Shown: positions 10,439 through 32,878, numbered from the stretch's first letter. The stretch is DNA of 38,901 bases from Candidatus Parcubacteria bacterium (GCA_026004535.1 BPJI01000001.1:390523-429423); one strand, 5' to 3'. Program-made: numbers and translations. Notes: a model not told the origin generated them from the sequence alone.

Positions 10439-10523
10439 CCAGGGGTGGCAGAGTGGACAATTGCACCTGGCTGTAGACCAGGCGGCCTTTGTGCCTGCGG
10501 GGGTTCGAATCCCTCCCCCTGGA
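10439..10523 (+). tRNA. tRNA-Tyr(GTA) with C1:G72 and a variable arm
   Basis: ccagggg/cccctgg acceptor, cctgg-ct-GTA-ga-ccagg anticodon arm, TTCGAAT T loop; TG-n-TATAAT at 10422-10430. Confidence 0.93.
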
Positions 10524-10668
10524 CATTGTTAATGGACAGGGGGAGGATGAGAACCCCCTACAACCTAACGGGCAATTTAGTGATTAACAGGAACGAAAGC
10601 GTTGGAGCTTTATTTTTTAACACAGAACATCGAGTTTACCGTTTTCGAATCCCCCTGGACATTGTTAA
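10524..10668. mobile_element. tRNA-anchored mini-element ending in a duplicate of the tRNA-Tyr 3' end
   Basis: Inverted tRNA 3' copy at about 10537-10553; direct copy ttcgaat-ccccctggacattgttaa at 10644-10668; 10624-10653 matches 32830-32859 at 28 of 30 positions. Confidence 0.6.
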
Positions 10669-10679
10669 AAAATAAAAAT

Positions 10680-11531
10680 ATGAAAAAAATAGATATAAAA
10701 ATTACTAATAAGATTCTATTTCAACCTCTGACCAAAACCATAATTGTTGATTTAATAGATAAATACCATATTAAAGATATGAATGATTGGTACAATGTAA
10801 ATGCAGATTTAATTATCACCGATCCACCATTCGGTATAGGTTTTAGTGGCAAAAAGGGGAATTATCATCGAGATGAATCATATGTTGTGGATGGTTATGT
10901 AGAATGGGATGTTAATGAATATGATAAGCATATAAGAAACTTATTAGATGTAATTTATAGGAATTTAAAAGATAATGGACAATGTTTAATATTTTCTGGT
11001 TGGAATAATAGTTATATAATTCATCAAGAAATTAAAAAATTTAAAAAGCTGGAGCTTAAGGGTAAACTTTATTGGATATACAATTTTGCTCCAGCATCTT
11101 TTCGCCGGCCCTCCCATAATATATACGAGATTTTCTGGTTAACAAAAGGAGATAAATGGACATTTCATAAACGCTGTTCTACCCATCATTGTCTTGAGGG
11201 TGAGCCAAATCTAACCTCTCTTATATTCAAAAGAGATTATAAAGTCAAAATGCCTAAATACCCCACAAGATTACCATTTAAACTTTTACAATGTCTGATC
11301 GAACATTTTTCAAATGAAAAAGATTTAATATTTGATCCTTTAGCTGGTAGCGGAATGGTTGGAATTGTGGCCTATTATTTAAATAGAGATTTTATTTTAG
11401 GAGATTTAAATCCAAATGGAAAAATCGTCTTTGAATCTTTATTAGATTATTATTTTAATAAAAATGGTTTAGAAAAAGATAAACAAATTTTACTATGGTG
11501 GAAAAAGAAACTTATGAAAAAGCAAGATTGA
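10680..11531 (+). CDS. Site-specific amino (N6-A/N4-C) DNA methyltransferase, beta class
   Basis: LIITDPPF (motif IV) precedes IFDPLAGSG (motif I); ATG 10680 preferred over 10602. Confidence 0.92.
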   Translation: MKKIDIKITNKILFQPLTKTIIVDLIDKYHIKDMNDWYNVNADLIITDPPFGIGFSGKKGNYHRDESYVVDGYVEWDVNEYDKHIRNLLDVIYRNLKDNGQCLIFSGWNNSYIIHQEIKKFKKLELKGKLYWIYNFAPASFRRPSHNIYEIFWLTKGDKWTFHKRCSTHHCLEGEPNLTSLIFKRDYKVKMPKYPTRLPFKLLQCLIEHFSNEKDLIFDPLAGSGMVGIVAYYLNRDFILGDLNPNGKIVFESLLDYYFNKNGLEKDKQILLWWKKKLMKKQD

Positions 11532-12139
11532 TATTTTTGGATTTTAAAAAAGAAGCAGAATCTGCCCGAAACAAAGAAAAAATAAAAGAATTTAAATTAG
11601 CTGCTAATGAACTAATTAAAGAATATAATACCGCTAATCGCGAAAACAGATTTATAGTAGGTGGGGCAATAGAAATTTTGTTTTCTGTGCTCCTTAAATC
11701 ATTAAATTTTAGAGTCAAATGGTTAAGTGGAGAAATGAGATATGATTTAATGATTGATAATATTGGTTTTTCTTTAAAAACGAATTTCACAGGTAATGGA
11801 GATATAAGACTTATTAATATTTTAGGTAATAAAGAGGCAAAATGGGAGGAGCCAACAATTTTCTTAATAAGCGGTATAGGAATGTGTTATTCTGATCCTG
11901 AGATAGGAAATTTTCAAACTAAACATACAAACGATGCCTTGACAATTAATGTTAAACAAATTATAAATTTTGTTAAAAATCATCCTCAATTTTTGATAAA
12001 GATTATCTTGAAGAAAAAACAAAGAGATATACAAAATAGTACTAAAACTGCAAGCATGGATGTTGCTAAGGTTATTTTAGAAAAAATTCAAAGTAGACAT
12101 TTGATAAAATATATTAAAGACATTATAAAAAATAGGTAA
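11495..12139 (+). CDS. Probable type II restriction endonuclease
   Basis: Overlaps the MTase stop; E...YDLMID..FSLKT resembles a PD-(D/E)xK variant; 214 aa. Confidence 0.6.
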   Translation: MVEKETYEKARLIFLDFKKEAESARNKEKIKEFKLAANELIKEYNTANRENRFIVGGAIEILFSVLLKSLNFRVKWLSGEMRYDLMIDNIGFSLKTNFTGNGDIRLINILGNKEAKWEEPTIFLISGIGMCYSDPEIGNFQTKHTNDALTINVKQIINFVKNHPQFLIKIILKKKQRDIQNSTKTASMDVAKVILEKIQSRHLIKYIKDIIKNR

Positions 12140-12140
12140 G

Positions 12141-13540
12141 ATGAAAACTGGGGTGGCGACAATTCCTTTAGATTATGGTAAATGTCCTCCTTGGCTCTTT
12201 AAAAGAATCAAAACCCTTGGTGGAATAATGGCTGAATTAATGATTGAAGAATTTGGTGTTGATGAATTTTTAAAAAGACTTTCTCATCCAGCTTGGTTTC
12301 AATCATTTGGTTCTTTACTTGCCTTTGATTGGAATTCTTCAGGACTTTCGGTTGTTTTAACTGCTGCTTTAAAAGCCTCTTTTAAAGAAAGAAATTTAGG
12401 AGTTTACGTTGCTGGCGGCAAAGGAAAAACTTCAAGGAAAACACCTGACGAACTTTTAATTATTGGTGAAAAAATTGGTCTTAATGGTGCAAAATATGCT
12501 CAAATTTCAAAATTGGTTGCTAAAATTGATAATTCATTGATTCAAGATGGATTTAGTCTCTATCATCATACTTTTTTTGTTACTGAAAAAGGGAATTGGG
12601 CTGTGATTCAACAAGGAATGAATACAGGATCGAGTAAAGCAAGAAGATATCATTGGCTAAGCCACGGATTACCACGGATTAATAAAAGCCACGGATTAAC
12701 ACGGATGGATATGAACCACGGATTCACACAGATTAATAAAAGCCACGGATTAACACGGATGGATATGAACCACGGATTCACACAGATTAATAAAAGCCAC
12801 GGATTAACACGGATAAATAAAACCACGGATTAACACAGACAGATATTTGTCAATCTATGGATAATTATCCACATACAGTGTCTCAATATAATCCGCGTGA
12901 ATCAGTGGACCAATATAATTCGTGCAAATCCGTGGACGAATATAATCCGTGCAAATCCGTGGACGAATATAATCCGTGTAAATCAGTGGACCAATATAAT
13001 CGGCGCAAATCCGTGGATTTAACTGAAGAGCCTCATTCAGGTATTGCTTCTGATATTTTTTTGAAAAAAGTTTTGAATTTAACTGCTAAAGAAAGTAAAG
13101 GAAATAAAGAAGGGATGATTAAAGTCTTAAATGAAGAACCAAAAATTGAAAAAGAGATTGTTAAAATTTTTGGGCAACCAGAAAAAACATTATTCTTGCC
13201 TAATATTGAATTTCATTACCACCCAGTTGTTGAAGAAAAATTCGACTTAAAAAGATTAAATAAAATAATTGCCAAGGCAAAATTTTTACAACCAAAAACA
13301 ATGGAAGAAATTTTATTAATTGAAGGAGTTGGACCAAAAACAATCAGAGCCTTATCTTTAGCTTCAGAATTAATTTATGGAGCCAAACCTTCTTTTGAAG
13401 ATCCAGCTCGTTATACGTTTGCTCACGGTGGCAAAGACGGAACTCCTTACCCAGTTGATCGTCAAACCTATGATGAAACAATAAAAATTTTTAATAGAGC
13501 TTTATTGATTTCCAGACAAAAGAAACTATTCATAAATTAA
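12141..13540 (+). CDS. DUF763 family protein carrying a ~355-nt repeat insertion; frameshifted near 12822
   Basis: WFQSFG, DWNSSG, QQGMN, ARRYHW in ORF1; EEPHSGI, GVGPKTIRAL, FAHGGKDGTPYPVD in ORF2; one added base joins the two ORFs. Confidence 0.85.
12661..13016. repeat. CACGGAT-family fold-back element with 27-nt units inside the DUF763 gene
   Basis: Left arm ccacggattaacacggat units with a 54-nt exact duplication; right arm has five 27-nt units of aatataatccgtgcaaatccgtggac type. Confidence 0.95.
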
Positions 13541-13556
13541 GACGTCGTACGTCTTA

Positions 13557-13782
13557 AATACAGAAGGGACAGAAACTGACACTTAATGAACGGAACAGAT
13601 AGAAATAAATACGTAACAAACAGAAACGGACACGGAAAAAACGGAATGAATGGAAGCGGACATGGAAGGAATAGAACGAACGGAAATAATTCTTCCGTTC
13701 GTTCCGATGATTCTGTGTCCGTTTCCGATTATTCCGCTTTAATTTCTAATAGGTCTGCGTTAATTACGTATTTTTCTGTGTT
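13557..13782. repeat. ACGGAA-family fold-back element, intergenic
   Basis: gaacgaacggaa(13674-85) pairs with ttccgttcgttc(13693-704); gaaacggacacggaa with ttctgtgtccgtttc; aaatacgtaa with ttacgtattt. Confidence 0.85.
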
Positions 13783-13785
13783 TTA

Positions 13786-14520
13786 ATGAAATTGAAAAGA
13801 GATTTTTTTACTCAACCAACTCTCAAAGTGGCTAAAAAACTTTTAGGCAAATATATTGTTAGAAAATATAGAGGTAAATTATTAATCGGTAAAATTGTTG
13901 AGACCGAAGCTTATATTGGACCAAAAGATAAAGCTTCTCATGCTTACTCAAACAAAGAACAGCCTGAAAAAGAGAAATTAAAAATTATTGATCAAAATTG
14001 GCAAAGAATTAAAAATTATGTTGAAAATAGAGAAAGATTTATCAAAAGAATTTTAAAACTTAAAAATGCTAAAGTAACCAAAAGAAATTTAGCTGAATAT
14101 TTAAAAGGAGGACATATTTATATTTACTTAGTTTATGGTAATTATTATCAATTAAATATAACTACTTATAAAGAAGGCTATCCTGAATGTGTTTTAATTA
14201 GAAGTTTGGAGCCAGTGGCCACAGATTTACACGGATTAAATATGGCCACAGATTTACACAGATATAAACGACGATTATTAAAGGTTAATATAATACCCAA
14301 TGGTCCAGGTAAATTATGTCAATATCTAAAATTAGATTCTTCTTTTTGGGGTGAAGATGTCTATCAAAGTGAAAGAATTTGGTTAGAAGATAATTCATCA
14401 TTAATTTCTTCAAGTGATATAATTAAAACAAAAAGAATTGGCATTGATTATGCTGGTGATGATGCTAATTTACCTTGGAGATTTTACCTTAAAAATAATA
14501 AATGGATATCAAAAAAGTAG
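13786..14520 (+). CDS. mpg: 3-methyladenine DNA glycosylase (MPG/AAG family)
   Basis: GKIVETEAY, DKASHAY, YIYLVYG, VLIRSLEP, NGPGKLC, RIGI, PWRF. Confidence 0.93.
   Translation: MKLKRDFFTQPTLKVAKKLLGKYIVRKYRGKLLIGKIVETEAYIGPKDKASHAYSNKEQPEKEKLKIIDQNWQRIKNYVENRERFIKRILKLKNAKVTKRNLAEYLKGGHIYIYLVYGNYYQLNITTYKEGYPECVLIRSLEPVATDLHGLNMATDLHRYKRRLLKVNIIPNGPGKLCQYLKLDSSFWGEDVYQSERIWLEDNSSLISSSDIIKTKRIGIDYAGDDANLPWRFYLKNNKWISKK
14216..14264 (+). repeat. CACGGAT-family half element, in frame inside mpg
   Basis: tggccacagatttacac twice at 27-nt period; read as ATDLHGLNMATDLHR. Confidence 0.8.
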
Positions 14521-14531
14521 ATAAGTTCTAA

Positions 14532-15899
14532 ATGATTATAAAAAATTTTAATCAATTGGCAATTAATAAAGAAAGAAAAATTGCTTTGGCAATGATTGAG
14601 AATGGTTTAAAAGCTTTGAATTATAGAAAAGTTATTCAAGAAAAATTCTTCAATAAATATTTAGATAAAGTTAAAAAATATAAAAATGTCTATTTAATTG
14701 GTTTTGGAAAAGGCTCAGCTCAGGTCGCTAACATTCTAAAAAGGAAAATTAAATTTAGAGAAATTTATGTTATTGATGTCATTGGTAAATATTATCGAGG
14801 AACCCATCCTCTGCCTTCATTAAAGAATTATCAATTTACAAAAAAAATTATTGAAAGATTTTCAGGACAATTAACAAAAAATGATTTAGTAATTGTTGTC
14901 GTTTGTGGCGGTGGTTCAGCAATGTTAGTTCAGCCAAAAATTTCATTGAAACAATATATTCAAATTAATCAACAACTTTTAAAATCGGGAGCGAATATTT
15001 ATGAAATGAATACAATTAGAAAGCATTTGGATTTGGTTAAAGGTGGGGGTTTGGCAAAGATTTTATATCCAGCAAAACTTATAAGTTTAATTTTTTCTGA
15101 CGTGCCAGGTAATGATTTAAGTTTTATTGCTTCGGGGCCAACGGTTAAGGATAAAACAACAATTAAAGATGCTTTAGGAATAATAAAAAAATATAAATTA
15201 AAAATAAAAAAAGAAGACTTAATTGAGACGCCGAAAGAAAATAAATATTTTCAAAATATTAAAAACTTATTAGTTTTGAGTAATTTAACGGCTTTAAGAA
15301 CAATGAAAGAAAAAGCAGAAAGATTAGGCCTGAAAGCAAAAATTTTAACTGATAATTTAAGAGGCGATGTTAAAGATGTAGCGAAATTTTTATTAACGGA
15401 AATAAAAAATTTTAAAGGAAATATTTTATTAGCTGGAGGCGAAACAACTGTTAAGGTAAAAGGACAGGGAAAGGGAGGAAGGAATCAAGAATTAGTAATA
15501 TGGTTTTTAAAGTACTTAGCGGAAGAAACGGACTTAACGCGGAATGTGCGGAATTATCGGAACATCAATAACAATTTAGGCCAAAATATATCTATCTATT
15601 CCGTTTCTTCCGTTCGTTCCGTGTCCGTTTCCGGTATTTCCGTACCATCTTCTATTTTAATTATTTCAATTAATTCTGATGGTTGGGATAACACTCCTTT
15701 TGCTGGAGCAATTGGTGATAAAATTACTTTAGAAAAATTAAAAAGATTAAATTTAGATGTTGATTATTTTTTAAACAATAATAATAGTTATGCTTTTTTT
15801 AGAAAGGTTAAAGATGGGATAATAACAGGCAGATTATCAATTAATGTTTCTGATTTAATTCTGGTCTATAATTTAAACAATGATCGAGGAACTTCATGA
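14532..15899 (+). CDS. Glycerate 2-kinase (DUF4147/MOFRL family)
   Basis: GFGKG, HPLP, GGGSA, KGGGLA, SDVPG, ASGPT, GGETTV, GGRNQE. Confidence 0.9.
   Translation: MIIKNFNQLAINKERKIALAMIENGLKALNYRKVIQEKFFNKYLDKVKKYKNVYLIGFGKGSAQVANILKRKIKFREIYVIDVIGKYYRGTHPLPSLKNYQFTKKIIERFSGQLTKNDLVIVVVCGGGSAMLVQPKISLKQYIQINQQLLKSGANIYEMNTIRKHLDLVKGGGLAKILYPAKLISLIFSDVPGNDLSFIASGPTVKDKTTIKDALGIIKKYKLKIKKEDLIETPKENKYFQNIKNLLVLSNLTALRTMKEKAERLGLKAKILTDNLRGDVKDVAKFLLTEIKNFKGNILLAGGETTVKVKGQGKGGRNQELVIWFLKYLAEETDLTRNVRNYRNINNNLGQNISIYSVSSVRSVSVSGISVPSSILIISINSDGWDNTPFAGAIGDKITLEKLKRLNLDVDYFLNNNNSYAFFRKVKDGIITGRLSINVSDLILVYNLNNDRGTS
15519..15643. repeat. ACGGAA-family fold-back element, in frame inside glycerate kinase
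   Basis: gcggaa/acggac/gcggaa units then ttccgtttcttccgttcgttccgtgtccgtttccgg; adds about 40 aa after GGRNQE. Confidence 0.85.
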
Positions 15900-16743
15900 T
15901 GAAAAGGTGAAATTTTTAGAAGAGAAAGCAAATGAAATAAGACAATTGATAATTGAAATGCTTTTAGAGGCTGGTTCTGGTCATTCTGCTGGACCATTAG
16001 GAATGGCTGATATTTTTTCAGCTTTTTATTTTCATATTTTACGTCATGATCCTCAAAATCCTGATTGGCCTGATAGAGATAGATTAATTTTATCTAATGG
16101 TCATATTTGTCCTGTTCGCTATGCAGCAATGGCACTTGCTGGTTATTTTCCGATTGAAGAATTAAAAACTTTAAGAAAAATAGATTCTCGTCTTCAAGGT
16201 CATCCTCATCGAACAACACTTCCAGGAGTAGAAACCAGTTCAGGTCCATTAGGCGAAGGAATTTCTCAAGCAATTGGTATTGCTTATGCTGGAATTTTAG
16301 ATAAAAAAGATTATCATGTTTATTGTCTTACTTCTGATGGTGAGCATCAAGAGGGAAATACCTGGGAAGCCTATATGTGGCTTGGCAAAAATCCTTTACC
16401 TAATTTAACAATAATAATTGATCGAAACTACATTCAAATTGATGGAGTAACTGAAGATGTTATGCCCCTTGAACCATTAAAACAAAAACTAGAATCTTTT
16501 GGACTCCATGTTTTAGAAGTTGATGGTCATAATATTCGTTCTTTTGTTGATGCAATTAGAGAAACTAAATCAGAATGGAGAAGAACTTCAGTTATTATTG
16601 CTTATACAATTCCAGGAAAAGGAGTAAGTTTTATGGAAAAGAAATTTGAATGGCACGGTAAGCCACCAAACAAAGAAGAAGCCAAAAAAGCTTTAGATGA
16701 ATTAAGAACATTAGGAGGAAAAATAATTAGTGAGCATCAGTAA
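15880..16743 (+). CDS. Transketolase, N-terminal (TPP-binding) subunit
   Basis: GSGHSAG, DRDRLILSNGH, LQGHP, SDGEHQEG...IDRN, WHGK. Confidence 0.93.
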   Translation: MIEELHDEKVKFLEEKANEIRQLIIEMLLEAGSGHSAGPLGMADIFSAFYFHILRHDPQNPDWPDRDRLILSNGHICPVRYAAMALAGYFPIEELKTLRKIDSRLQGHPHRTTLPGVETSSGPLGEGISQAIGIAYAGILDKKDYHVYCLTSDGEHQEGNTWEAYMWLGKNPLPNLTIIIDRNYIQIDGVTEDVMPLEPLKQKLESFGLHVLEVDGHNIRSFVDAIRETKSEWRRTSVIIAYTIPGKGVSFMEKKFEWHGKPPNKEEAKKALDELRTLGGKIISEHQ

Positions 16744-16744
16744 A

Positions 16745-17947
16745 ATGTTAAATAATTTTAAAAAAATTTTAATTACAGTAATTATTGTCTCAATTTTATT
16801 TTCTTTTTTAAACGTTAATTTAACTATTTCTGAAGAAATGGTTAAATGTCAATTTAAAAGACATCTTTTCCCTGGCTTAAAAGGTGACGATGTTAAGTGC
16901 TTACAAACTTTTTTAAAACAATCAGGCTATTTTAGTGGTCCTGTTACTGGCTATTACGATGATTTAACTAAAGAAGCTGTAATAGAATGGCAGAAGACAA
17001 ACAATATATTTCCTGCTCATGGTTATTTTACTTTAGCTTCTAGAAAATTCTATCTAAATTTAATTAATAAACAGCAATTAACAAATCAGATTAAACAACA
17101 AGAACAATATAGATTGGTTTTACCGGAAATCAAAGATGACGAAATAATAATTGATAACGATGATGGTTTTAATCAAATAGATCTTTATTTTAAACATATT
17201 TTTATTGATAATATTCCTAAAATTGATTATAATGAATTAGAACGACTTTTTAAAACAGAACCTTTTTCTTTAGAATTTTTAATTGATAAGACATTAAATA
17301 ATGAAAATTTTGATAAACAGTTGATTAAACAAAAAACAGAACTATTTGAAAATTTTTATAAACAAAGATTATCAATTCTCAAAAAAGTATCAATTAGTAA
17401 AAATTTAATAGATTTACACAAAACCTTCATAGTAAGTGATATTCTTTCACAAGAGTTAGTTACTAAATTTAATGATTATTTGGATGGAAAAGTATCCAAA
17501 GAAGACTTTGATAAATATTATAAAGAATACAAGGAAAAAATCAATTTTCTCAAAACTTCATTTAATTTAGCTTCGGTAAAATATTCCAATAATACAAAAG
17601 ATTTATTGTCTTTATTAATGGGTTTTTTGATTAAACCAGCTTTTGCTCAAACCAGTTTGGTTTTTAAACCTTTTGGCGGACGTATCTTATTTACTCTAAT
17701 CTGTTCTTGTAACCTTGGGCGATTAATTTATGTTGGCCCACCAAGGCTAATTACATTATTTGTTCCACTTGGCTTTGAAGCCTCTCCTCTGGTATATTTA
17801 TGGAAAAATACATATACGCCTGGTGTTTGGTTATTAGGCTTAACTTTTCATATCCCAGTTTCGTGTCTTATTATTACATCATCTGCATGTGCTCCTGTGG
17901 GCTCAGGATCATTAATTTATATGACCGGAACAAGTTTAATACCGTAA
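16745..17947 (+). CDS. Secreted protein with peptidoglycan-binding domain and Cys-rich C-terminal module
   Basis: N-terminal signal/TM; G.KGDDVKCLQTFL...VTGYY..LTKEAVIEWQ is PG_binding_1-like; ATG 16745. Confidence 0.75.
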   Translation: MLNNFKKILITVIIVSILFSFLNVNLTISEEMVKCQFKRHLFPGLKGDDVKCLQTFLKQSGYFSGPVTGYYDDLTKEAVIEWQKTNNIFPAHGYFTLASRKFYLNLINKQQLTNQIKQQEQYRLVLPEIKDDEIIIDNDDGFNQIDLYFKHIFIDNIPKIDYNELERLFKTEPFSLEFLIDKTLNNENFDKQLIKQKTELFENFYKQRLSILKKVSISKNLIDLHKTFIVSDILSQELVTKFNDYLDGKVSKEDFDKYYKEYKEKINFLKTSFNLASVKYSNNTKDLLSLLMGFLIKPAFAQTSLVFKPFGGRILFTLICSCNLGRLIYVGPPRLITLFVPLGFEASPLVYLWKNTYTPGVWLLGLTFHIPVSCLIITSSACAPVGSGSLIYMTGTSLIP

Positions 17948-17958
17948 CATATTTAATA

Positions 17959-18978
17959 ATGCTTAATCCCAAACTAAAATTAAATCCCAAAATTTTTGAT
18001 CAAGAGGTTGAACAAAAACCAATCAGAGATGGTTATGGTGATGCTTTAGTTGAACTTGGTGAAAAAAATCCTAATGTTGTTGTTTTAACTGCTGACTTAA
18101 CTGAATCAACTCGATCTAATAAATTTGCTGAAAAATTTCCCCAAAGATTTATTGAATGTGGCGTAGCTGAACAAAATATGGCTGGAATTGCTGCTGGTTT
18201 AGGTGTAAGTGGAAAAATTGCTTTTATTTCTTCTTATGCAGCTTTTTCTCCTGGTAAAAATTGGGAAACAATCAGAACAACAATAGTTTATAATGATTCC
18301 AATGTAAAAATTGCTGGTCATCATTCAGGTATTGTCACTGGTCCTGATGGTGCTACTCATCAAGCAACTGAAGATATTGCTATTACCAGATGCTGGCCAA
18401 ATATAAGGGTTATTTCTCCTTGTGACTATTGGGAAGCAAAAAAAGCAACATTATATTCAGCAGAAGTTTATGGTCCGTTTTATATCAGATATGTAAGAGA
18501 TAAAACACCAATAATAACAACAGAAGAGACTCCTTTTAGATTCGGTAAGATTGAAGAATTCTGGGTACCACAGACTAACGCAGACAAAAATTTAGTTGCA
18601 GTGTTTGCAACTGGCCATTTAGTCTATCAAGCACTTTTAGCTGCTAAAGACTTGGAAGAGGAGGGAATAGATGTTTATGTTTTAAATGTTCATACAATCA
18701 AACCACTTGATGTTGAAAAAATTTTTGAAATTACTAAAAAAGTTAAAGGAATCATTACTTTAGAAGATCATCAAGTTCAAGGTGGAATGGGAAGTGCTAT
18801 TGGTGAAGCTTTAATGAATATTGATTTTCAAAGACAATATGGATTTTTTTCTATTCCACCAATAAAATTTTTAGGACTTCAAAATACTTTTGCTGAATCA
18901 GGCAACCCTGATGAATTAATTCAAAAATATGGAATGAATAAAGAAGCAGTAAAAAGGGCTGTCAAAGAACTTATTTAA
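17959..18978 (+). CDS. Transketolase, C-terminal subunit
   Basis: ADLTES, GVAEQNM, GPDGATHQ, TIKPLD, EDHQ..GG; ATG 17959 preferred over 17800. Confidence 0.93.
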   Translation: MLNPKLKLNPKIFDQEVEQKPIRDGYGDALVELGEKNPNVVVLTADLTESTRSNKFAEKFPQRFIECGVAEQNMAGIAAGLGVSGKIAFISSYAAFSPGKNWETIRTTIVYNDSNVKIAGHHSGIVTGPDGATHQATEDIAITRCWPNIRVISPCDYWEAKKATLYSAEVYGPFYIRYVRDKTPIITTEETPFRFGKIEEFWVPQTNADKNLVAVFATGHLVYQALLAAKDLEEEGIDVYVLNVHTIKPLDVEKIFEITKKVKGIITLEDHQVQGGMGSAIGEALMNIDFQRQYGFFSIPPIKFLGLQNTFAESGNPDELIQKYGMNKEAVKRAVKELI

Positions 18979-18992
18979 AATTAATATAACTA

Positions 18993-20813
18993 ATGTGTGG
19001 AATAGTTGGCTACTTGGGAAAAAGAAATGCGTTAGAAATTATTCTTAAAGGATTAGAAAAATTGGAATATCGAGGTTATGATTCCTGCGGGATTGTTGTT
19101 TATGGTGAAAAATTGATTTTGAAGAAAACTGTTGGTATGGTGAAAGATTTAAAAGAATTATTTAAAGAAAAAATTAAAGCTGATATCGGCATTGGGCATA
19201 CTCGTTGGGCAACTCACGGAGGAGTAACTGAATTTAATGCTCATCCTCATTTTGATTGTCAAAAAAATATTTTTATTGTTCATAATGGAATCATTGAAAA
19301 TTATCAAGAACTAAAAAAAATCTTAGTTAATAAAGGACATCTATTTAATTCAGAAACTGATAGCGAAGTTATTGCTCATTTAATCGAAGACTTTATTAAT
19401 CAGGGTGATAATTTTGAAGCTTCTGTTCATAAAACTTTAAATTTAATTCAGGGAACTTTTGCTCTTTTAATTTTTAATAAAAATGAACCGAATAAGATAA
19501 TTGCTGCTCGTTTTTCAAGTCCATTGGTTTTAGGGATTGGTAAGAATGAATTTATCTTGGCTTCAGATCCTTTGCCAATTTCACTTATTACTGATAGAAT
19601 GATTTTTTTAGATGATAGCGAAATGGCTATTGTTAATAAAGAAGGTTATGAAATTAAATCTTATGTTAATAATTTAAAAATTGATAAAAAGACTGTTGGT
19701 TTAGATTTAAAAGTTAAGACAACTGAGAAAGAAGGTTTTAAGCATTATATGATTAAAGAAATTTTTGAAGAACCAATAGCAATTGAAAATACGTTACGAG
19801 GAAGGATTTTAAAAGATAAAACAGGAACAAAAATAAGGGGCTTGGAAGAGATTTATCATAAATTGAAAAATTTAAAAAGAATAATTTTAACTGGCTGCGG
19901 CACTGCTTATTATGCTTGTTTATATGGTAAATACTTATTTGAAGAATTTCTGCCTTATATTATTGAAGCTGAGATTGCTTCAGAATTAAGGTATCGAAAG
20001 ATAAATTATGATCAAGAGACCTTGGTAATTGCTATTTCTCAATCAGGCGAAACAATTGATACTTTAGAAGCTCTTAAAGAAGCAAAAAATAAAGGAGCGA
20101 TAACTTTTGGAATTATTAATGTTCCTGGTTCAACAATTGCTAGGACAGTTGATGCTGGAATGTATACTTATGCTGGTCCAGAAATGGCAGTTGCTTCAAC
20201 TAAAGCTCTAATTTCACAAATAACTGCTTTAATTTTAATAATGATTTATTTAGCAAGGAAGAATTTAATGAAACCAGAGGAAGCAAAAAATATTTTAGAA
20301 GAATTAGAAAAGATTCCTGATAAAATTCGTTATATTTTAGGTCAAGAAAGTTTAATTATTGATTTGGCCAAAAATTTAATCAATTATAAGAATTTTTATT
20401 TTTTGGGCAGGAAATTCTCTTTACCAGTTGCTTTAGAGGGCGCTTTGAAATTAAAAGAAATAAGCTATGTTCATTCAGAAGCTTATCCCGCTGGAGAGAT
20501 GAAACATGGGCCAATTGCTTTAATTGATGAGAATTTCCCTGTTTTTGTCATTGCCCCTAATGATTCTTTGTATCAAAAAACGATTTCTAATTTAGAAGAA
20601 ATCAGAGCAAGAAAAGGAAAAGTTATTTTAATTAGCGATAAATTTCCAGAAAATAAAATTGATTATTTAATTTCAATTCCTTCGAGCTTAGAAATTCTTT
20701 ATCCTTTATTAACAATACCATCACTGCATCTTTTTGCTTATTATTTTGCCAATCTACTTGATTTATCCATTGATCGACCAAGAAATTTAGCTAAATCAGT
20801 GACAGTTGAATAG
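18993..20813 (+). CDS. glmS: Glutamine-fructose-6-phosphate transaminase
   Basis: MCGIVG, LEYRGYDS, HTRWATHG, SQSGET, PRNLAKSVTVE. Confidence 0.97.
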   Translation: MCGIVGYLGKRNALEIILKGLEKLEYRGYDSCGIVVYGEKLILKKTVGMVKDLKELFKEKIKADIGIGHTRWATHGGVTEFNAHPHFDCQKNIFIVHNGIIENYQELKKILVNKGHLFNSETDSEVIAHLIEDFINQGDNFEASVHKTLNLIQGTFALLIFNKNEPNKIIAARFSSPLVLGIGKNEFILASDPLPISLITDRMIFLDDSEMAIVNKEGYEIKSYVNNLKIDKKTVGLDLKVKTTEKEGFKHYMIKEIFEEPIAIENTLRGRILKDKTGTKIRGLEEIYHKLKNLKRIILTGCGTAYYACLYGKYLFEEFLPYIIEAEIASELRYRKINYDQETLVIAISQSGETIDTLEALKEAKNKGAITFGIINVPGSTIARTVDAGMYTYAGPEMAVASTKALISQITALILIMIYLARKNLMKPEEAKNILEELEKIPDKIRYILGQESLIIDLAKNLINYKNFYFLGRKFSLPVALEGALKLKEISYVHSEAYPAGEMKHGPIALIDENFPVFVIAPNDSLYQKTISNLEEIRARKGKVILISDKFPENKIDYLISIPSSLEILYPLLTIPSLHLFAYYFANLLDLSIDRPRNLAKSVTVE

Positions 20814-24578: not shown

Positions 24579-24628
24579 TTAGGTAAAAATTTTTAATTGA
24601 TTTAAAAATTGTATAAATTTAAATTAAA

Positions 24629-24673: not shown

Positions 24674-24688
24674 AAAAACAAAAAATAA

Positions 24689-25157: not shown

Positions 25158-25175
25158 TATATTGACTTAGATATA

Positions 25176-26335: not shown

Positions 26336-26356
26336 AATTATTAAATTCTTCAATTC

Positions 26357-26452
26357 CGAATTGCGAATTACGAATTCAATTATAAAAACTCATTTAATTA
26401 AGATTTAATTAAGAAATAATAAAAAGAATTCGTTAACTCGTAATTCGTTAAC
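26357..26452. repeat. CGAATT-family fold-back element
   Basis: cgaattgcgaattacgaattc ... gaattcgttaactcgtaattcgtt. Confidence 0.7.
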
Positions 26453-26482
26453 TAATGAATTAAGAATTAAGAGTAATAAATA

Positions 26483-28165: not shown

Positions 28166-28167
28166 TT

Positions 28168-29293: not shown

Positions 29294-29312
29294 ATTGTAA
29301 TAAAGATAAAAA

Positions 29313-29477
29313 TACCCGGATCGGCACCGGATACATTACCTCGATAGCTTACCGGATATATCCTGTTAATATCCGGGCAGTTCCATCCGGTTTATATCCG
29401 GGTAACTTATCCGGTAAAATCCGTGTAGTATTATCCGGTTTAAATCCGGGTAGTATTATCTAGTTTAAATCCGTGTA
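29313..29477. repeat. CCGGAT-family fold-back element (copy 4)
   Basis: tacccggat/accggat units then atccggt/atccgggta units ending shortly before the pcm ATG. Confidence 0.9.
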
Positions 29478-29484
29478 AATATAT

Positions 29485-30108
29485 ATGATCCAAAACAATC
29501 AAGAATTAGTCAAATATTTAATTGAAGAAAAAAAAGTTTTGAAAACAAAGGAAATTATTGATGCTTTTTTGAAAATTGATCGGCAAGATTTTGTCAGGGA
29601 AGAATATTTAACTGAAGCTTATAATGATTATCCTTTGCCTATCGGCTACGGACAAACAATTTCTCAACCTTTTACTGTTGCTTTTATGTTAGAGCTTTTA
29701 CAACCTCAAAAGGATAATAAAATTTTAGATATTGGCTTTGGTTCTGGTTGGACAACTTGTTTATTGGCTGAAATTTCTCAAAATAAAGTTTATGCAATTG
29801 AAGTCGTACCTGAGGTTTTTGAATTTGGCAAGAAAAATATTGAAAAATATAATTTTTTTAAAGAGGGTGTTATTGAGGTTTTTTTAATGGATGGTTCTAA
29901 GGGATTTTTAGAAAAAGCGCCTTTTGACAGAATTTTAGTTAGTGCTGCAGCTAAAAAAATTCCCGAAGAATTGATTCAACAATTAAACGAAAATGGTGTT
30001 TTGGTCATTCCTGATTTTGAAGGTATCTATAAAATTAAAAAATTTAATGGTAAAATTGAAAAAGAATATTATTATGGGTTTATCTTTGTGTCTTTAGTTT
30101 CAAAATGA
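29485..30108 (+). CDS. pcm: Protein-L-isoaspartate O-methyltransferase
   Basis: AYNDYPLPIGYGQTISQP, LDIGFGSGW, APFDRILVSAAA. Confidence 0.93.
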   Translation: MIQNNQELVKYLIEEKKVLKTKEIIDAFLKIDRQDFVREEYLTEAYNDYPLPIGYGQTISQPFTVAFMLELLQPQKDNKILDIGFGSGWTTCLLAEISQNKVYAIEVVPEVFEFGKKNIEKYNFFKEGVIEVFLMDGSKGFLEKAPFDRILVSAAAKKIPEELIQQLNENGVLVIPDFEGIYKIKKFNGKIEKEYYYGFIFVSLVSK

Positions 30109-30746
30109 ATAAAGAATTCTCTTGTGTGATACCTGCTTACAATGAGGAAGGAAGAATAGGTAATGTTGTAAGGGTGGCAAAGCGACATCCGTTAATTAAA
30201 GAAGTTATCGTAGTTTCTGATGGTTCAATAGATAGAACTGTTGAGGAAGCAAGACTTAATGGTGCCGATAAAGTAATTGAATTAAAGAAAAATATTGGTA
30301 AAGGCGGAGCTGTTTTTATTGGTTCAAATTTAGCTAAATCAGATTGGATACTTTTATTAGATGGTGACCTGATAGGAATTGAGCAAAAGCACATCGATCT
30401 ACTTTTAGAGCCAATTTTATCTGATAGAGCAGATATGACTATTGGTGTTTTAATCGACGAGCCATTAATTAAGATTTTTCCGGTAATTTCGGGTCAGAGA
30501 GTAGTCAAACGAGAATTAATTATTAAACACCCTGAATTAAAAGAAAGTCGTTTCCAATTAGAACTTCTCTTAAATAAATATGCCAAACAATTAGATTATA
30601 GAATCATTAATGTAAATTTACCAAATCTTAGTCATGTCAAAAAAGAACAGAAATATAACTTCTTAACTGTTTTGTCGCAAAGACTCTATTCATCTTCCGG
30701 TTACCTTCTTTATTTTTTTAAGAAAATAAAGACTTTAATAAAATGA
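30105..30746 (+). CDS. Glycosyltransferase family 2
   Basis: VIPAYNEE, VSDGSID, GKGGA, LDGD. Confidence 0.9.
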   Translation: MNKEFSCVIPAYNEEGRIGNVVRVAKRHPLIKEVIVVSDGSIDRTVEEARLNGADKVIELKKNIGKGGAVFIGSNLAKSDWILLLDGDLIGIEQKHIDLLLEPILSDRADMTIGVLIDEPLIKIFPVISGQRVVKRELIIKHPELKESRFQLELLLNKYAKQLDYRIINVNLPNLSHVKKEQKYNFLTVLSQRLYSSSGYLLYFFKKIKTLIK

Positions 30747-32542
30747 CACCATTTTTAGAATTAACAATTATTTTTCTTTTTACTGCTTTGATCGCTTTTC
30801 TTTTCCGTCTTTTAAAACAGCCATTAATTATTAGCTATATTTTTGCTGGTCTAATCTTAAGTAATTATTTATTTAAATTTACCGAAACTAAAGCTTTAAT
30901 TGAAATATTTAGTGATTTAGGTATTGCTTTTTTGCTTTTTATTGTTGGTTTAGAACTTAAGTTAAATTCTTTAAGAGAAATTGGCCGTCAAGCAATTATT
31001 ATCGGTACTCTTCAAGAAATTTTTACCATCATAGCTGGGTTTTTGATTGCTAAGATTTTAGGTTTTGGTACCACTCCAGCTTTATATTTAGGAGCAGCAC
31101 TTTCATTTTCAAGCACGATTATTATGGTAAAATTAATTTCTGATAAGGGTGATATTGAAAAATTATATGGAAAATTAGCAATTGGTTTTTTGCTCGTTCA
31201 AGATTTAATTACAATCTTAATTTTGTTTTTGCTCCCATTTTTTAAAAAAGAAATTTTTAGCCAAGAAGCTTTTTTGCAATTATCTTTAGGCTTAATCGCT
31301 ATTCCTTTAATTCCTTATTTAGCTTATAGATTCCTACCGCGAATAGAAAAATTTTTAACTCGATCAGAGGAATTTTTATTTTTATTTGCTCTTGCTTTTG
31401 GTTTGGGTATTAGTTCCTTATTTAAATATTTAGGTTTGGGAATTGAAGCTGGTGCTTTGATAGCTGGTATTAGTCTTTCTAATTTAATTAGTTCAACTGA
31501 GATTGCCTCTAAATTAAAACCCCTGAGAGATTTCTTTTTAATTTTGTTTTTCATTTTAATTGGTTCGAAAATTTTTATTTTTCATTTTGATCAATATTTA
31601 TGGCAGGTTATAGTTTTGTCTTTGTTTGTTCTAATTGGTAATCCGTTGATTATGCTTTTGCTGCTCGGCCTTTTAGGTTATAAAAGCAGAACTTCTTTTC
31701 TTTTGGGTTTAACTTCAGCTCAGATTAGTGAATTTTCATTTATTTTAATTAGTTTAGGTATTAAATTTGGTCATTTATCAGAAGAAATTTTGTCAATTAC
31801 TGCTCTAGTTGGTTTAATTACAATTTTTCTCTCAACCTATTTTTTTGCTTATGCTGAAAAAATTTATCTTTTGTTAGAAAGATATCTTAAGATTTTTGAA
31901 AGAAAAAAAACAAGAGAGGAAAAAGAAGAAATCCCCAGTTATGAGGTGATATTATTTGGCTGTGATCGAATTGGTTATAGTTTTTTGAATGTTTTGAGAC
32001 CACGGATTAACACGGATTTAAGAACGAATCAACACGGATTATTTAAACCACGGATTGAGATGGATAAAAATAGATCACGGATTAACGCGGATGTAGGAAC
32101 AGATAAACGTGGATTAGCAATTAAAAATTTTCTGATTGTTGACTATAATTTCGAATTGATTAAAAAATTAAAAAAAGAGGGGTTTAATGTTATTTATGGA
32201 GATGCTGAGGAAATTGATTTTTTGCAAAGCTTAAATTTAACAAAGACAAAATTAATTATTTCAACTATACCCGATTTTGAGACTAATTTATTAATCTTGC
32301 AAGAGTATAAAAAAGAAAATCCTGAAGGAATTTTTATAGCTACTGCTTATCGACTCAATGATGCTTTGGATCTATATAAAAATAATGCTGATTACGTAAT
32401 AATGCCACATTTTCTTGGCGGAGAATTTGCCAGTAATATTATTGAAAAATTTGGTTTCAATAAAGATGAATATTTGAAACTAAAAGAAAAATCAATAGCC
32501 CATATCCAACAAAGATACCGACTTGGACATGAACATCCATAA
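30743..32542 (+). CDS. Kef-type (CPA2) cation:proton antiporter with C-terminal RCK domain
   Basis: Multiple TM helices, LLFIVGLE, FSSTII, LVQD, QISEF; GCDRIG and IYGDA in the RCK domain. Confidence 0.92.
   Translation: MTPFLELTIIFLFTALIAFLFRLLKQPLIISYIFAGLILSNYLFKFTETKALIEIFSDLGIAFLLFIVGLELKLNSLREIGRQAIIIGTLQEIFTIIAGFLIAKILGFGTTPALYLGAALSFSSTIIMVKLISDKGDIEKLYGKLAIGFLLVQDLITILILFLLPFFKKEIFSQEAFLQLSLGLIAIPLIPYLAYRFLPRIEKFLTRSEEFLFLFALAFGLGISSLFKYLGLGIEAGALIAGISLSNLISSTEIASKLKPLRDFFLILFFILIGSKIFIFHFDQYLWQVIVLSLFVLIGNPLIMLLLLGLLGYKSRTSFLLGLTSAQISEFSFILISLGIKFGHLSEEILSITALVGLITIFLSTYFFAYAEKIYLLLERYLKIFERKKTREEKEEIPSYEVILFGCDRIGYSFLNVLRPRINTDLRTNQHGLFKPRIEMDKNRSRINADVGTDKRGLAIKNFLIVDYNFELIKKLKKEGFNVIYGDAEEIDFLQSLNLTKTKLIISTIPDFETNLLILQEYKKENPEGIFIATAYRLNDALDLYKNNADYVIMPHFLGGEFASNIIEKFGFNKDEYLKLKEKSIAHIQQRYRLGHEHP
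32000..32115 (+). repeat. CACGGAT-family half element, in frame inside the RCK domain
   Basis: ccacggattaacacggatt, aacacggatt, ccacggatt, tcacggattaacgcggat; read as PRINTDL...PRI...SRINAD. Confidence 0.85.
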
Positions 32543-32561
32543 GGTGTTATAATTTAACTAT

Positions 32562-32649
32562 GGAGGGGTGGCCGAGTGGTTAAGGCAAGGTCCTGCTAAG
32601 ACCTGCCCGGTTAAAAGCTGGGCCGTGGGTTCGAATCCCACCCCCTCCG
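32562..32649 (+). tRNA. tRNA-Ser(GCT)
   Basis: ggagggg/cccctcc acceptor, aggtc-ct-GCT-aa-gacct anticodon arm, long variable arm, G73; no CCA. Confidence 0.95.
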
Positions 32650-32878
32650 TACGCAAGCATATAAAAATGAGCGAATGAATATAAAGCAAGGCAAACAAGG
32701 GGTGGTTTCGAATACGGTAATATCCAAGTCGATTATACAAAACAAATTTTTTTTATTTCATCATTGATAATTAGTTAAAGATTGTTTAATTGCTGTGGCA
32801 TTCAGCCACACGACACAGCAGACAAATAAAGAACATGGAGTTTATCGTTTTCGAATCCCACCCACTCCGCATTCGCCC
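32650..32878. mobile_element. tRNA-anchored mini-element ending in a duplicate of the tRNA-Ser 3' end
   Basis: Inverted tRNA 3' copy at 32698-32712; direct copy 32850-32869 matches 32630-32649 at 19 of 20; shares a 30-nt block with the tRNA-Tyr element. Confidence 0.65.

Follow-up and report, generated by a model that had tools for sequence, protein, structure and literature searches.

A gene-less element of about 125 nt with arms matching the local tRNA, identified behind 13 tRNA genes of a Candidatus Parcubacteria bacterium

Large islands have their classic landing pads in tRNA genes; such an island usually encodes an integrase of its own and is confined to a single tRNA. The crossover sites used within tRNA genes are classed as anticodon-loop, T-loop and 3'-end sites. 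Smaller repeats are also known. The REP/REPIN repeats moved by RAYT are intergenic, hairpin-forming sequences of about 100 nt that occur in many copies and are not known to be tied to tRNAs or to copy their flanks. Integron attC sites are recognised by the core motifs RYYYAAC and GTTRRRY. According to the Islander report (PMC4383910), islands situated in tRNA genes regenerate their target and leave a displaced fragment of it. In a second source (PMC5704250), CIMEs are described as elements that have lost the genes for integration and transfer and have retained attL and attR. Integron integrases are described, in two further papers (PMC4792948, PMC5027507), as recombining single-stranded with double-stranded partners, the attC site having unpaired features.

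The original prediction, made on the window considered here (the whole stretch of DNA analysed, 38,901 nt, from a Candidatus Parcubacteria bacterium), described two copies of one mini-element, behind tRNA-Tyr and tRNA-Ser. In the current analysis this element, referred to as E and about 125 nt long, has been identified directly 3' of 13 of the 45 tRNA genes of the 844-kb genome and nowhere else, using nhmmer and a covariance model, so the two copies are not isolated. Twelve of the occupied loci were recognised by the model and that of tRNA-Trp by the profile and a 17-mer. The predicted adjacency to tRNAs is borne out genome-wide, all profile and covariance-model matches lying 0-56 nt downstream of tRNA genes and none away from them. 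The features of the window are collected in Table 1.

The general layout is as follows: the tRNA is followed by a spacer of 0-85 nt, the arm LE, a conserved core, a GAGTTTACCGT block that is near-invariant across copies, and the arm RE. LE is an inverted copy of the T-stem/acceptor 3' strand of the tRNA, and RE repeats the tRNA directly, starting with the first base of the T loop. The left edge of the direct repeat is always this base, and a variant T loop is copied too (TTCGAGC for Ser-TGA). The right edge is variable: the majority of copies have a repeat of 20-21 nt, whereas that of Tyr measures 29 nt (less 3) and that of Ser-CGA exceeds 40 nt. The target tRNAs are intact; with Rfam, the Tyr and Ser tRNAs of the window score 54-59 bits, and the tRNAs Ser-CGA, Pro-CGG and Val-TAC score 58-77 bits.

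At the Tyr locus a perfect direct repeat of 19 nt (10514-10532 and 10650-10668) extends 8-9 nt beyond the end of the tRNA; RE, in which 3 nt of the T stem are missing, runs on into the copied trailer ATTGTTAA. Positions 10499-10518 are 80% complementary to 10539-10558 over 20 nt, and a second inverted pairing of 16 nt, between 10512-10527 and 10531-10546, is 88% complementary with a loop of 3 nt. At the Ser locus, where a promoter-like TGGACA-18-TATAAT (32524-32553) is situated directly upstream of the tRNA, the direct repeat (32630-32649 and 32850-32869) is identical in 19 of 20 positions; the predicted direct copies of tRNA 3' ends have thus been confirmed at both loci. The predicted inverted copies of the T arm are likewise present at both, though LE is better seen as complementary to the right end, the T-loop bases 58-60 being bulged out.

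The Ser copy, taken earlier for a longer form of the element of about 220 nt, is an inverted E core followed by a right-end stub, and in this stub nhmmer covers profile positions 94-132 only. The left arm of this copy, 27 nt long (32699-32725) and containing GTGGTTTCGAAT at 32702-32713, is the reverse complement of a right end (GGGGTGG-TTTCGAA-TACGGTAATATCC), namely that at ~32838-32866; the pairing was read from the sequence, the gapless repeat finder having given no such pair. A hairpin, GTGGC-ATTCA-GCCAC, is located within the inverted core at 32795-32809. The shared 30-nt block of the original prediction is present at 10624-10653 and 32830-32859 with no mismatch to its degenerate pattern, exactly twice in the window and not once in 100 dinucleotide shuffles of it. 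Across the family only GAGTTTAYCGTNTTCGA of this block is kept, and the leading AGAACAT is common to the Tyr and Ser copies alone.

Table 1. Positions and supporting matches of the tRNA genes and of the parts of E in the window
Feature	Position	Strand	Remarks
tRNA-Pro(TGG), unoccupied here	3231..3304	-	Full E behind the orthologous tRNA (97% identical) of metagenome locus L051
tRNA-Tyr(GTA), intact	10439..10524	+	ARAGORN; Rfam tRNA 54.2 bits
tRNA-Tyr, T loop TTCGAAT	10504-10510
tRNA-Tyr, T-stem 3' strand	10511-10515
tRNA-Tyr, acceptor 3' strand	10516-10522
X1, Tyr-locus segment duplicated downstream	10504..10532	+	T loop to tRNA 3' end plus 8-9 trailing bases
E, Tyr copy	10536..10660	+ (tRNA orientation)	Covariance model R1 76.9 bits, E-value 1.9e-15; nhmmer E-value 1.7e-29; in the genome G000:C1:401058-401182 (R1)
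Tyr copy, LE	10537-10554		CAGGGGGAGG-ATGAGAAC
Tyr copy, core	10555-10631
Tyr copy, right block	10632-10643		GAGTTTACCGTT
Tyr copy, RE	10644..10668	+	Direct tRNA-Tyr 3'-end copy from first T-loop base
tRNA-Ser(GCT), intact	32561..32650	+	T loop 32630-32636; ARAGORN, Rfam
Ser-type spacer/trailer	32651..32691	+	Homologous trailers behind tRNA-Ser(GGA) and tRNA-Ser(CGA) elsewhere in the genome (sequence comparison)
E core, inverted, Ser locus	32692..32817	-	R1 minus strand 34.2 bits, E-value 3.9e-5; in the genome C1:423214-423339 (R1), nhmmer minus-strand match 423221-423323
Ser right-end stub, direct orientation	32838..32869	+	Block GAGTTTATCGTT 32838-32849, then RE 32850-32869

In the metagenome E has been identified behind tRNAs at 16 syntenic loci, all 16 real matches following a tRNA or being cut at a contig end. 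It is absent from the 150 relatives searched, 24 of which belong to the same family, and all 18 tRNA-Tyr loci compared from that family are empty. In relatives E is present behind Thr(TGT) and Pro(TGG), both of which are empty in this genome. Whether an orthologous tRNA site is occupied or empty varies with the lineage. The original prediction of a non-autonomous, T-loop-targeting element with tRNA-specific ends stands in so far as E occurs only at tRNAs and sites without it exist in relatives; the "universal T loop" named as its target is too broad, the T stem GTGGG/CCCAC being strongly enriched among occupied tRNAs (10 of 13, as against 4 of the 32 unoccupied ones, p = 6.4e-5). The cores of E cluster by genome lineage and not by tRNA, and the Thr copy is nearest to the Leu(TAA) copies (81-82%). 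Single tRNAs with pile-ups of partial tandem, head-to-head and tail-to-tail copies have also been found, with a third 3'-end copy at one locus (L060). Degenerate copies are seen at Leu-CAG, Val-TAC, Pro-CGG and Trp, and they speak against a host function that every site would require.

The arms follow the local tRNA closely. In 19 copies RE has 0-3 mismatches to the tRNA, LE has 0-3 to its complement, and double changes are seen in 7 of 11 outer-stem pairs. Where RE and the tRNA differ within the paired part, LE complements the tRNA in all five informative copies. This would fit an arrival of LE together with the present 3' end of the tRNA, RE being a relic. Among the changes in the arms, 8 of 12 in RE are C>T and 5 of 5 in LE are G>A, and both arms decay toward A/T independently and without compensation. 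LE and RE make up an imperfect stem of about 20 bp, the inner 7 bp of which are 89% paired and almost invariant, with unpaired bases fixed on one strand (a 3-nt T-loop bulge, 58-60, and an 8-nt AGTTTACC bulge). The DNA-fold z-scores of the E hairpins are uneven (-4.9, -3.7, -0.9, -0.9 and +0.8).

Based on the sequence comparisons, E is tentatively regarded, at somewhat less than even confidence, as a gene-less and integrase-less miniature integrative element of about 125 nt that would be specific to the T loop and is decaying in this genome. The mobile unit would begin at the first T-loop base and comprise a replacement tRNA 3' end (X), the variable spacer, LE, the conserved core and the GAGTTTACCGT block. 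Its recombination with the tRNA gene would take place at the G53|T54 boundary; the tRNA would be rebuilt from the X brought by E and the original 3' end pushed to the far side as RE, the same displacement as in tRNA-integrating islands. Because LE is complementary to the block and X, a single strand can fold into the imperfect stem, mimicking the target duplex. This folded strand may be the substrate of recombination, as in integron attC or CTX-phage attP, and the recombinase would act in trans. We propose that the family is old and decaying in this genome and younger in sister lineages.

Some considerations count against a mobile E, among them the uneven stability of its hairpins. No excised form, circle junction or recent insertion came to light, the assembly unitigs breaking at tRNAs. 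If E arrives with a 3' end of its own, moving to another tRNA would result in a tRNA with mismatched acceptor strands, so that the colonisation of more than 13 tRNA species would need extra steps. A unit of 130-220 nt is very small for a double-stranded circle, and neither an autonomous relative nor a carrier phage or plasmid was found in the collections searched. The invariant blocks amid 45-70% identity would also fit a selected host function.

Among enzymes, none of six transposase and reverse-transcriptase families (Y1, IS110, TnpB, rve, DDE_Tnp_1 and reverse transcriptase) is found in the 97%-complete genome; the Y1 transposase profile PF01797 has no match in it, and a control search matched 6 of 14 reference genomes. 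The single tyrosine recombinase match (PF00589, C1:203909-204415) has an Xer-like two-domain make-up and is far from any E, and three serine recombinase genes are located on other contigs. The longer, recombinase-bearing copies envisaged in the original prediction did not come to light: viral, phage, plasmid, genome and metagenome collections gave no larger relative, the genome and metagenome scans yielding mini copies only. Viral contigs gave 8 chance matches to E, with none of 80 loci matched by R1, and the phage and plasmid collections no match. No description of such an element was found in the full-text literature outside subscription journals.

It is also possible, though unlikely, that no dedicated enzyme is involved and that ectopic gene conversion and template switching during replication spread E and supply its arms, with the palindromic T arm (GTGGG-N7-CCCAC) as the seed. 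A fold-back inversion would then account for the left junction and a switch at the common TTCGA..CCCAC microhomology for the right one, and quasi-palindrome correction would keep LE complementary to the adjoining tRNA. This agrees with the tracking of the tRNA rather than RE by LE, with the T stem common to occupied tRNAs, with the lack of a transposase among the families searched in the genome, and with the near-perfect palindrome, with a loop of 3-17 nt, that the tRNA 3' end and LE form in about half of the copies, including the 16-nt pairing of Tyr. Head-to-head (Ser-GGA) and tail-to-tail (L056) dimers point the same way; spacer and E are common to the Ser loci, and the acceptor stem of Ser-GGA varies by lineage with the arms following, as conversion tracts would. 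Template switching accounts poorly, however, for a right block and inner stem that are invariant in 18 copies whose remaining sequence is only 45-70% identical, which points to sequence-specific recognition, and for a repeat that starts at the identical T-loop base in every copy. At least 13 independent two-switch accidents with identical boundaries are improbable.

It is somewhat less probable that E works as a functional RNA, or in cis within the tRNA precursor. The anti-tRNA arm could pair with the 3' half of the tRNA and be released by the direct copy, as an RNA switch, or the closing helix could mimic an acceptor/T minihelix and direct processing in the stretch that separates the tRNA from the gene after it. 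E is located downstream of the tRNA promoter with its outer arms always on the tRNA strand, its unpaired blocks are conserved, and the model stems are paired in 81.4% of cells, a level reached in none of 500 shuffles (75.8%) and falling to 36-53% on sliding. The model helices contain 64 G-U/U-G cells and 15 A-C/C-A cells, a count that leans to the plus strand because the structure was derived from plus-strand folds. Against this, covariation is found almost wholly in the outer helix, where both arms copy the tRNA, and the arm changes are uncompensated; only 8 of 21 copies have the lower minimum free energy on their tRNA strand. The cores are inverted at 3 loci here and at one locus of relatives and truncated at others, and the gene downstream is co-oriented with E at some loci and convergent at others. 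At the gathering score Rfam matched tRNA only, four copies searched at E-values up to 10 gave nothing over E, and no terminator-like site was found. These observations, with the absence of E from the 150 relatives, speak against the RNA switch competing with tRNA folding that had earlier been considered.

It is very improbable that each copy is a separate scar of a large island or prophage that sat in the tRNA gene and had its interior deleted: the displaced tRNA 3' fragment is a classic island mark (PMC4383910), decay to att-flanked remnants (CIMEs) is described (PMC5704250), and E does have a variable stretch in mid-core, but independent deletions would not yield one 125-nt unit, its parts in unchanged order, at 13 + 16 loci, integrase or phage genes flank no copy examined, the viral, phage, plasmid, genome and metagenome collections as searched hold no related larger element, and one deletion derivative that then spread would amount to the mobile element preferred here.

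One gene-less 125-nt family is found here behind over a quarter of all tRNA genes in an 844-kb genome, with an inverted and a direct target copy at each. If E is mobile, it would be the smallest tRNA-integrating element known to us. It would also be a natural case of attachment-site specificity shifting between tRNAs and a hint at folded-strand recombination sites beyond integrons and Xer-exploiting phages. A more speculative and improbable model is that of a self-contained programmable attachment site, the hairpin of which, as a folded single strand, would show a replica of the T-arm/acceptor duplex to a recombinase of the host or of a phage, while the outer arms would be re-templated from the neighbouring tRNA. 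One 125-nt element could then retarget across many tRNA species, always restoring the gene, by a logic between attC and guide-directed transposition and in an ultra-small genome with almost no recombinases. For annotation, programs that look for tRNAs or islands can be misled by the displaced 3' ends and the anti-tRNA arms, and these also break assemblies at tRNAs.

Islands and prophages that enter tRNA genes by tyrosine integrases resemble E in the intact tRNA, in the T-loop-started 3'-end copy at the far end and in their pile-ups at one tRNA. E differs from them in that its repeats are only 125-220 nt apart and enclose neither integrase nor cargo, in occupying at least 13 tRNA species of one genome as a single family, and in its inverted target copy, which such islands do not need. 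CIMEs and MITEs are like E small, gene-less, repeat-bounded and multi-copy, and presumably served by an enzyme in trans. The repeat-bounded, gene-less make-up is that of a CIME, whereas the derivation of CIMEs from a related ICE or IME finds no counterpart among the larger elements searched for. The terminal inverted repeats (the LE/RE stem) are those of a MITE; what is repeated in E is however a piece of the target gene, from 20 to over 40 nt long and with only its left edge fixed, instead of a short target-site duplication of fixed length, and no cognate transposase-bearing element with the same ends was found in the genome. The outer halves of the inverted arms differ between copies because they are target sequence. 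E shares with REP/REPIN repeats the intergenic location, hairpin formation, size of about 100 nt and copy number, and differs from them in that its genome has no Y1 transposase (RAYT).

With respect to the attC core motifs, LE (YGAGAAC) and RE (GTTTTCG) fit in AAC...GTT only, and IntI and cassette arrays are lacking, E being single and behind tRNAs with the T loop, and not attI or dif, as its target. In predicted geometry only, the attC site and the CTX-phage attP hairpin are like E, being imperfect palindromes of about 60-150 nt with a stem imitating the duplex site and fixed unpaired bases. A comparable layout is seen in E, in which an inverted target-like copy, a loop of about 90 nt and a direct copy adjoin the restored target.

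In the current analysis, elements of ~125 nt situated 3' of tRNA genes have been identified at 13 tRNA loci of the source genome, an assembly of 844,316 bases in 16 contigs (97% complete, ~30% G+C) that encodes 45 tRNAs and one tmRNA and belongs to an order in which 400/400 sampled genomes measure 0.3-1.5 Mb. These RNA genes mark a bacterium, presumably of an ultra-small-genome lineage of CPR/Patescibacteria type, and the window covers positions 390523-429423 of its contig C1. Scans with repeated tRNA tails, a 17-mer, an nhmmer profile and a covariance model of the element (R1) agree. The 14 matches of R1 fall on 12 tRNA loci, namely Leu-TAG, Ser-TGA, Leu-TAA, Met, Ser-CGA, Tyr, Cys, Ser-GGA (two copies), Ser-GCT, Leu-CAG, Val-TAC and Pro-CGG; the profile and the 17-mer together raise the count to thirteen with tRNA-Trp. 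Leu-CAG (28 bits), Val-TAC (24 bits), Pro-CGG (16 bits) and Trp (profile only) are weak or degenerate. The profile and R1 have no match away from tRNAs in the whole genome, and the element starts 0-56 nt after the tRNA end in every copy there. The two copies of a shared block described in the original prediction are both present in the window, but they belong to this far larger family.

Each occupied tRNA is followed by a spacer (0 to ~85 nt, without conservation across unrelated loci), a left end, a core, a block and a right end. The left end is the complement of the T-stem 3' strand and of 4-6 acceptor bases (more in Tyr), followed by YGA(N)GAAC. The core has the conserved islands CAACC, GCAC and GAACGARAGC and a small hairpin. 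The near-invariant block GAGTTTAYCGT, written GAGTTTACCGT, precedes the right end, which starts exactly at the first T-loop base of its own tRNA and copies the T loop, the T-stem 3' strand, the acceptor 3' strand and the discriminator. Some right ends extend past the tRNA end, by 8-9 nt in Tyr and by >20 nt in Ser-CGA.

Both window copies carry the predicted 30-nt block (0/100 shuffles), and the direct and inverted tRNA copies claimed for tRNA-Tyr and tRNA-Ser were likewise recovered. In the Ser copy the core is inverted and a right-end stub comes after it, and this accounts for the "long imperfect inverted repeat" noticed there. The tRNA-Tyr gene is flanked by genes for EF-P and a DNA methylase and the tRNA-Ser gene by those for an Na+/H+ exchanger and GatB, all four being ordinary housekeeping genes. 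A 22-kb island joining the two copies was rejected on the flat base composition, on these four annotated flanking genes and because the two repeats come from different tRNAs. Contigs of three DNA runs mapped to window positions 1-20000 end as unitigs inside tRNAs and show no joint or insertion at either tRNA of that stretch. The A/T-rich inverted repeat that brackets the Tyr right end may be due to chance in A/T-rich DNA or may be a trace of another event.

Coordinates of the features in the window, the source genome (contigs C1 and C16) and loci of relatives
Feature	Sequence	Position	Remark
30-nt block, Tyr copy	window	10624-10653	
30-nt block, Ser copy	window	32830-32859	
Tyr direct copy of tRNA 3' end	window	10514-10532 = 10650-10668	perfect, 19 nt
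Tyr inverted copy	window	10531-10558	pairs with tRNA 3' half
Ser direct copy of tRNA 3' end	window	32850-32869	19/20 identical
Ser left arm	window	32699-32725	27 nt, mirrors right end
Ser copy, profile and R1 match	window	32692-32817	minus strand
Ser copy, last 39 profile positions only	window	32830-32868	plus strand
A/T-rich inverted repeat	window	10609-10622 / 10663-10676	perfect, 14 nt
Inverted repeat arrays	window	8009-8285, 9377-9727	24-25-nt repeat
Array arms	window	8088-8275 / 9408-9595	188 nt, 97% complementary
Methionine-aminopeptidase-like gene	window	8289-9047	
tRNA-binding-domain gene	window	9040-9360	minus strand
Opposite-strand joints	window	8048/9667, 8275/9452	run X1 contigs
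Phased 8-nt repeats	window	about 3311	upstream of tRNA-Pro
Phased 8-nt repeats, examples	C1	149557-149586, 365464-365501, 381875-381912	
Motif TTAACGAGTTCACGA	window	about 10387-10401	
Motif TTAACGAGTTCACGA	C1	321352, 327183, 47460, others	
tRNA-Thr(TGT)	C1	267181-267253	
tRNA-Thr(TGT)	L060	2330-2402	
Palindromic insert, ~85 nt	L060	2534-2640	
Palindromic insert, ~85 nt	L048	118-200	
Diverged cousin	L209 (G012:C3)	1604-1880	reverse strand
tRNA-Asn, recombinase and nuclease genes	C16	803-3520	

Other repeats have been observed in the window and elsewhere on C1. Two inverted arrays of a repeat of the form TTATCCGG-N-ATCCGGGTA bracket the genes for a methionine-aminopeptidase-like protein and a tRNA-binding-domain protein, and opposite-strand joints occur at the arrays, so the bracketed segment may invert or may be misjoined in assemblies. 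Repeats with an 8-nt phase, GAAGCTNN in form, often lie directly upstream of tRNA genes; a 14-mer for them has 65 matches at <=2 mismatches. The short motif TTAACGAGTTCACGA and its variants recur near several tRNA loci (13 matches at <=2 mismatches), and sister lineages have analogous ACGCGGAT-type repeats at the equivalent places.

Pairing of the left end with the block and right end falls into three parts. The outer one, a helix of 9-11 bp whose sequence derives from the tRNA, is followed by a 3-nt bulge corresponding to T-loop bases 58-60 and by a 7-bp inner helix, YGAGAAC/GTTTTCG, with 3-4 further pairs past the 8-nt bulge AGTTTACC. RNAalifold on the raw MAFFT alignment, in which the left-arm loop is misaligned, gave no structure, and the structure was obtained through the covariance model instead. 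The model alignment of 21 sequences has 81.4% paired cells against 75.8% when shuffled (0/500 shuffles as high) and 36-53% with the partner slid. Outer pairs are changed on both sides at 7/11 positions, and the inner helix, 89% paired, hardly varies. An alternative fold on the minus strand was rejected as inconsistent between copies.

Covariation in the outer helix stems from both arms being copied off the tRNA and not from selection for pairing. Mismatches between right end and tRNA within the part covered by the left end occur in five copies (Ser-TGA, Leu-TAA, Ser-GCT and the relatives' loci L043 and L076), and in 5/5 the left end complements the tRNA and not the right end. In the Tyr left end an A stands at the place of a G-U pair in the T stem of the tRNA; this left end therefore complements the 3' strand at the DNA level instead of repeating the 5' strand in sense. 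Base changes are C>T in 8/12 cases in the right end and G>A in 5/5 in the left end; these are the same A/T-ward drift on the strand carrying tRNA-like sequence. At the tRNA-Trp locus L056, with a T stem GCAGG/CCTGC, the left end reads GGAGGCAGG-TGAGAA-CCTGC and the right end is a perfect 21-mer.

The T-stem 3' strand CCCAC is found in 10/13 occupied tRNAs versus 4/32 unoccupied ones (Fisher p = 6.4e-5), and this preference explains the apparent one for the long-arm tRNAs Ser, Leu and Tyr. Thr(TGT) and Pro(TGG) are without the element in the source genome and carry it in the relatives' loci L060 and L051 respectively; the Thr(TGT) gene of the source genome has another T stem, that of L060 has GTGGG/CCCAC. 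Other arrangements also occur: at Ser-GGA a head-to-head pair is complete, with the hairpin GTGGC-ATTCA-GCCAC at its centre, Trp is arranged similarly to Ser-GCT, L056 has a tail-to-tail pair and Cys has a truncated second tandem unit. The four Ser genes have spacer and element in common.

A degenerate 21-nt right-end pattern matched seven loci in contigs of one genome per species, one of them real (L039, with a tRNA-Met region 97% identical to the source genome), and 37 in metagenomes, 16 of them real, ~30% G+C, 3' of tRNAs and in one case cut at the contig end. The remaining 6/7 and 21/37 are chance matches in high-GC coding DNA. The tRNAs preceding the real metagenome copies are Ser-CGA, Ser-TGA, Ser-GGA, Ser-GCT, Leu-TAA, Pro-TGG, Pro-CGG, Trp, Thr-TGT and Tyr. 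The real loci are mostly syntenic with the source genome (nucleotide identity 70-86% where the flank alignments are longer) and are therefore orthologues, in sister lineages, of its tRNA loci; the arms there follow the local tRNA as clearly. Copies independent of tRNAs are invisible to this T-loop-containing pattern, and independence was tested in the source genome only, plus viral contigs by a core pattern.

R1 has no match in 150 relatives (24 of the same family), and 18/18 same-family tRNA-Tyr loci recovered lack the element. The gene downstream of tRNA-Tyr at the sister locus L071 lies directly after the tRNA in G015, one of these 18. A strict architecture pattern is found, among 151 genomes, only in the source genome and in G012, a member of another genus. 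There a diverged cousin, spotted by eye, follows tRNA-Ser(GCT) as a ~160-nt insert with a left-end-like GGG-TGAGAA-GCCAC and then a perfect 21-nt copy of the tRNA 3' end from TTCGA. Its spacer is a 29-nt perfect palindrome and a GGGGC-TTCT-GCCCC hairpin replaces the conserved block. The 17-mer in 400 same-order genomes gave nine single matches, none near a tRNA and at a rate similar to that of a reversed-pattern control, and these were dismissed as chance.

Cores cluster by lineage and not by tRNA. Across lineages, Tyr copies are 52% and Ser-TGA copies 51% identical, the source genome's own copies are 45-71% identical, and those of sister lineages 57-88%; the nearest to the L060 Thr copy are the Leu-TAA copies (81-82%). 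Of the right ends in the source genome, seven are mismatched at 0-3 positions, that of Tyr lacks 3 nt and that of Cys has five differences, and none is recognisable at Leu-CAG, Trp, Pro-CGG and Val-TAC. Most sister-lineage right ends have 0-1 mismatch and two have 3, counting positions past the discriminator. With copies more diverged and right ends more eroded, the family looks old and decaying in the source genome and younger in the sister lineages.

Between the source genome and L060, the syntenic tRNA-Thr(TGT) genes diverge in the acceptor, anticodon and T stems, and much more so than the coding DNA on their flanks (~79% identical). The acceptor and T arm of the L060 gene resemble those of tRNA-Met in the source genome; this may reflect replacement or remoulding of a tRNA gene in connection with the element. 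After the element's right end, L060 and L048 have another A/T-rich palindromic insert (aaaagaaatctaaaattt...). In L060 a third tRNA-Thr 3'-end copy follows it, just before the start codon of the next gene, and unrelated small inserts thus also end in tRNA-tail copies. The extra DNA after the element in L051 is an ordinary convergent gene (213 aa) and not part of it. The contig of L039 (BPGX01000023.1), 8.2 kb long and bearing the title of a Bacteroidia MAG, matches the source genome over 1.47 kb including the Met copy; it may be mis-binned.

We tentatively prefer, at a little short of even chances, the reading that the element is a miniature integrative element mobilised in trans and probably recombining as a folded strand. 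The mobile unit would comprise an incoming tRNA 3' end, the spacer, left end, core and block, and the agreement of the left end with the present tRNA 3' end fits the two travelling together. Against this, excision was not observed, the recombinase is only putative and would act in trans, and, on the way to a tRNA with another acceptor stem, the element would have to cross a stage with a mismatched tRNA. It may plausibly have moved in small steps from one stem to a similar one, for example within the set of four Ser genes. Distinctly less likely is an enzyme-free route in which the palindromic T arm would nucleate template switching and gene conversion.

A functional RNA is slightly less probable again. 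Rfam searches, in gathering mode on the window and in E-value mode on four copies, give nothing over the element, and no terminator-like site was found there. Downstream genes are co-oriented at five loci but convergent at three, the tRNA-strand fold is the more stable in only 8/21 copies, DNA-fold z-scores are mixed, and cores can be inverted. A sub-threshold Rfam match to sX4 overlies the tRNA itself, and a tRNA pseudogene was rejected as no tRNA model matches the element on either strand. As an account of the copies, independent island scars seem less probable still.

The source genome encodes one tyrosine recombinase (293 aa, Xer-like domain make-up), two near-identical serine recombinases of 183 aa each on contig C3 and, on contig C16, a large serine recombinase reduced to a 248-aa fragment; Y1, IS110, TnpB, rve, DDE_Tnp_1 and reverse transcriptase have no match. 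Contigs C3, with its 19.3-kb repeat, and C16 were rejected as carriers, as neither holds an element or a tRNA 3' fragment. C3 (38,547 bases) consists of two tandem units of 19,261 bases, 95.5% identical, and in each of them the recombinase gene adjoins that of an HTH protein. A plasmid or phage-like replicon may account for this contig, or a head-to-tail assembly of two variants. L039 shares a 61-nt match with C3 exactly where its synteny with C1 stops. On C16, tRNA-Asn is followed by the truncated recombinase and a GmrSD_N+HNH nuclease gene, which may be an island remnant at a tRNA without the element. In viral contigs the right-end 17-mer gave eight matches, all chance, and a core 16-mer gave 93, with R1 matching 0/80 loci fetched. 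Phage and plasmid collections gave no blastn match.

No description of such an element was found in the full-text literature searched, which includes few subscription journals. A left repeat edge fixed at the T-loop start, a variable right edge, an intact tRNA and pile-ups at single tRNAs are all traits of elements integrating into tRNA genes. The miniature integrative element would belong to a known kind, tRNA-integrating and non-autonomous, with a minority chance that it represents a new recombination logic. The attP hairpin of CTX phage is similar in geometry to its fold. Elements that integrate into tRNA genes restore the gene and push its original end aside (PMC4383910), and CIMEs are integrase-less derivatives flanked by att sites (PMC5704250). 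Neither is known to combine, as the present element does, miniature size with the occupancy of many tRNA species, nor to have an inverted target copy through which, together with the conserved inner arm, one strand can take the shape of the target duplex, with bulges at fixed places. This geometry recalls integron attC sites (PMC5027507, PMC4792948).
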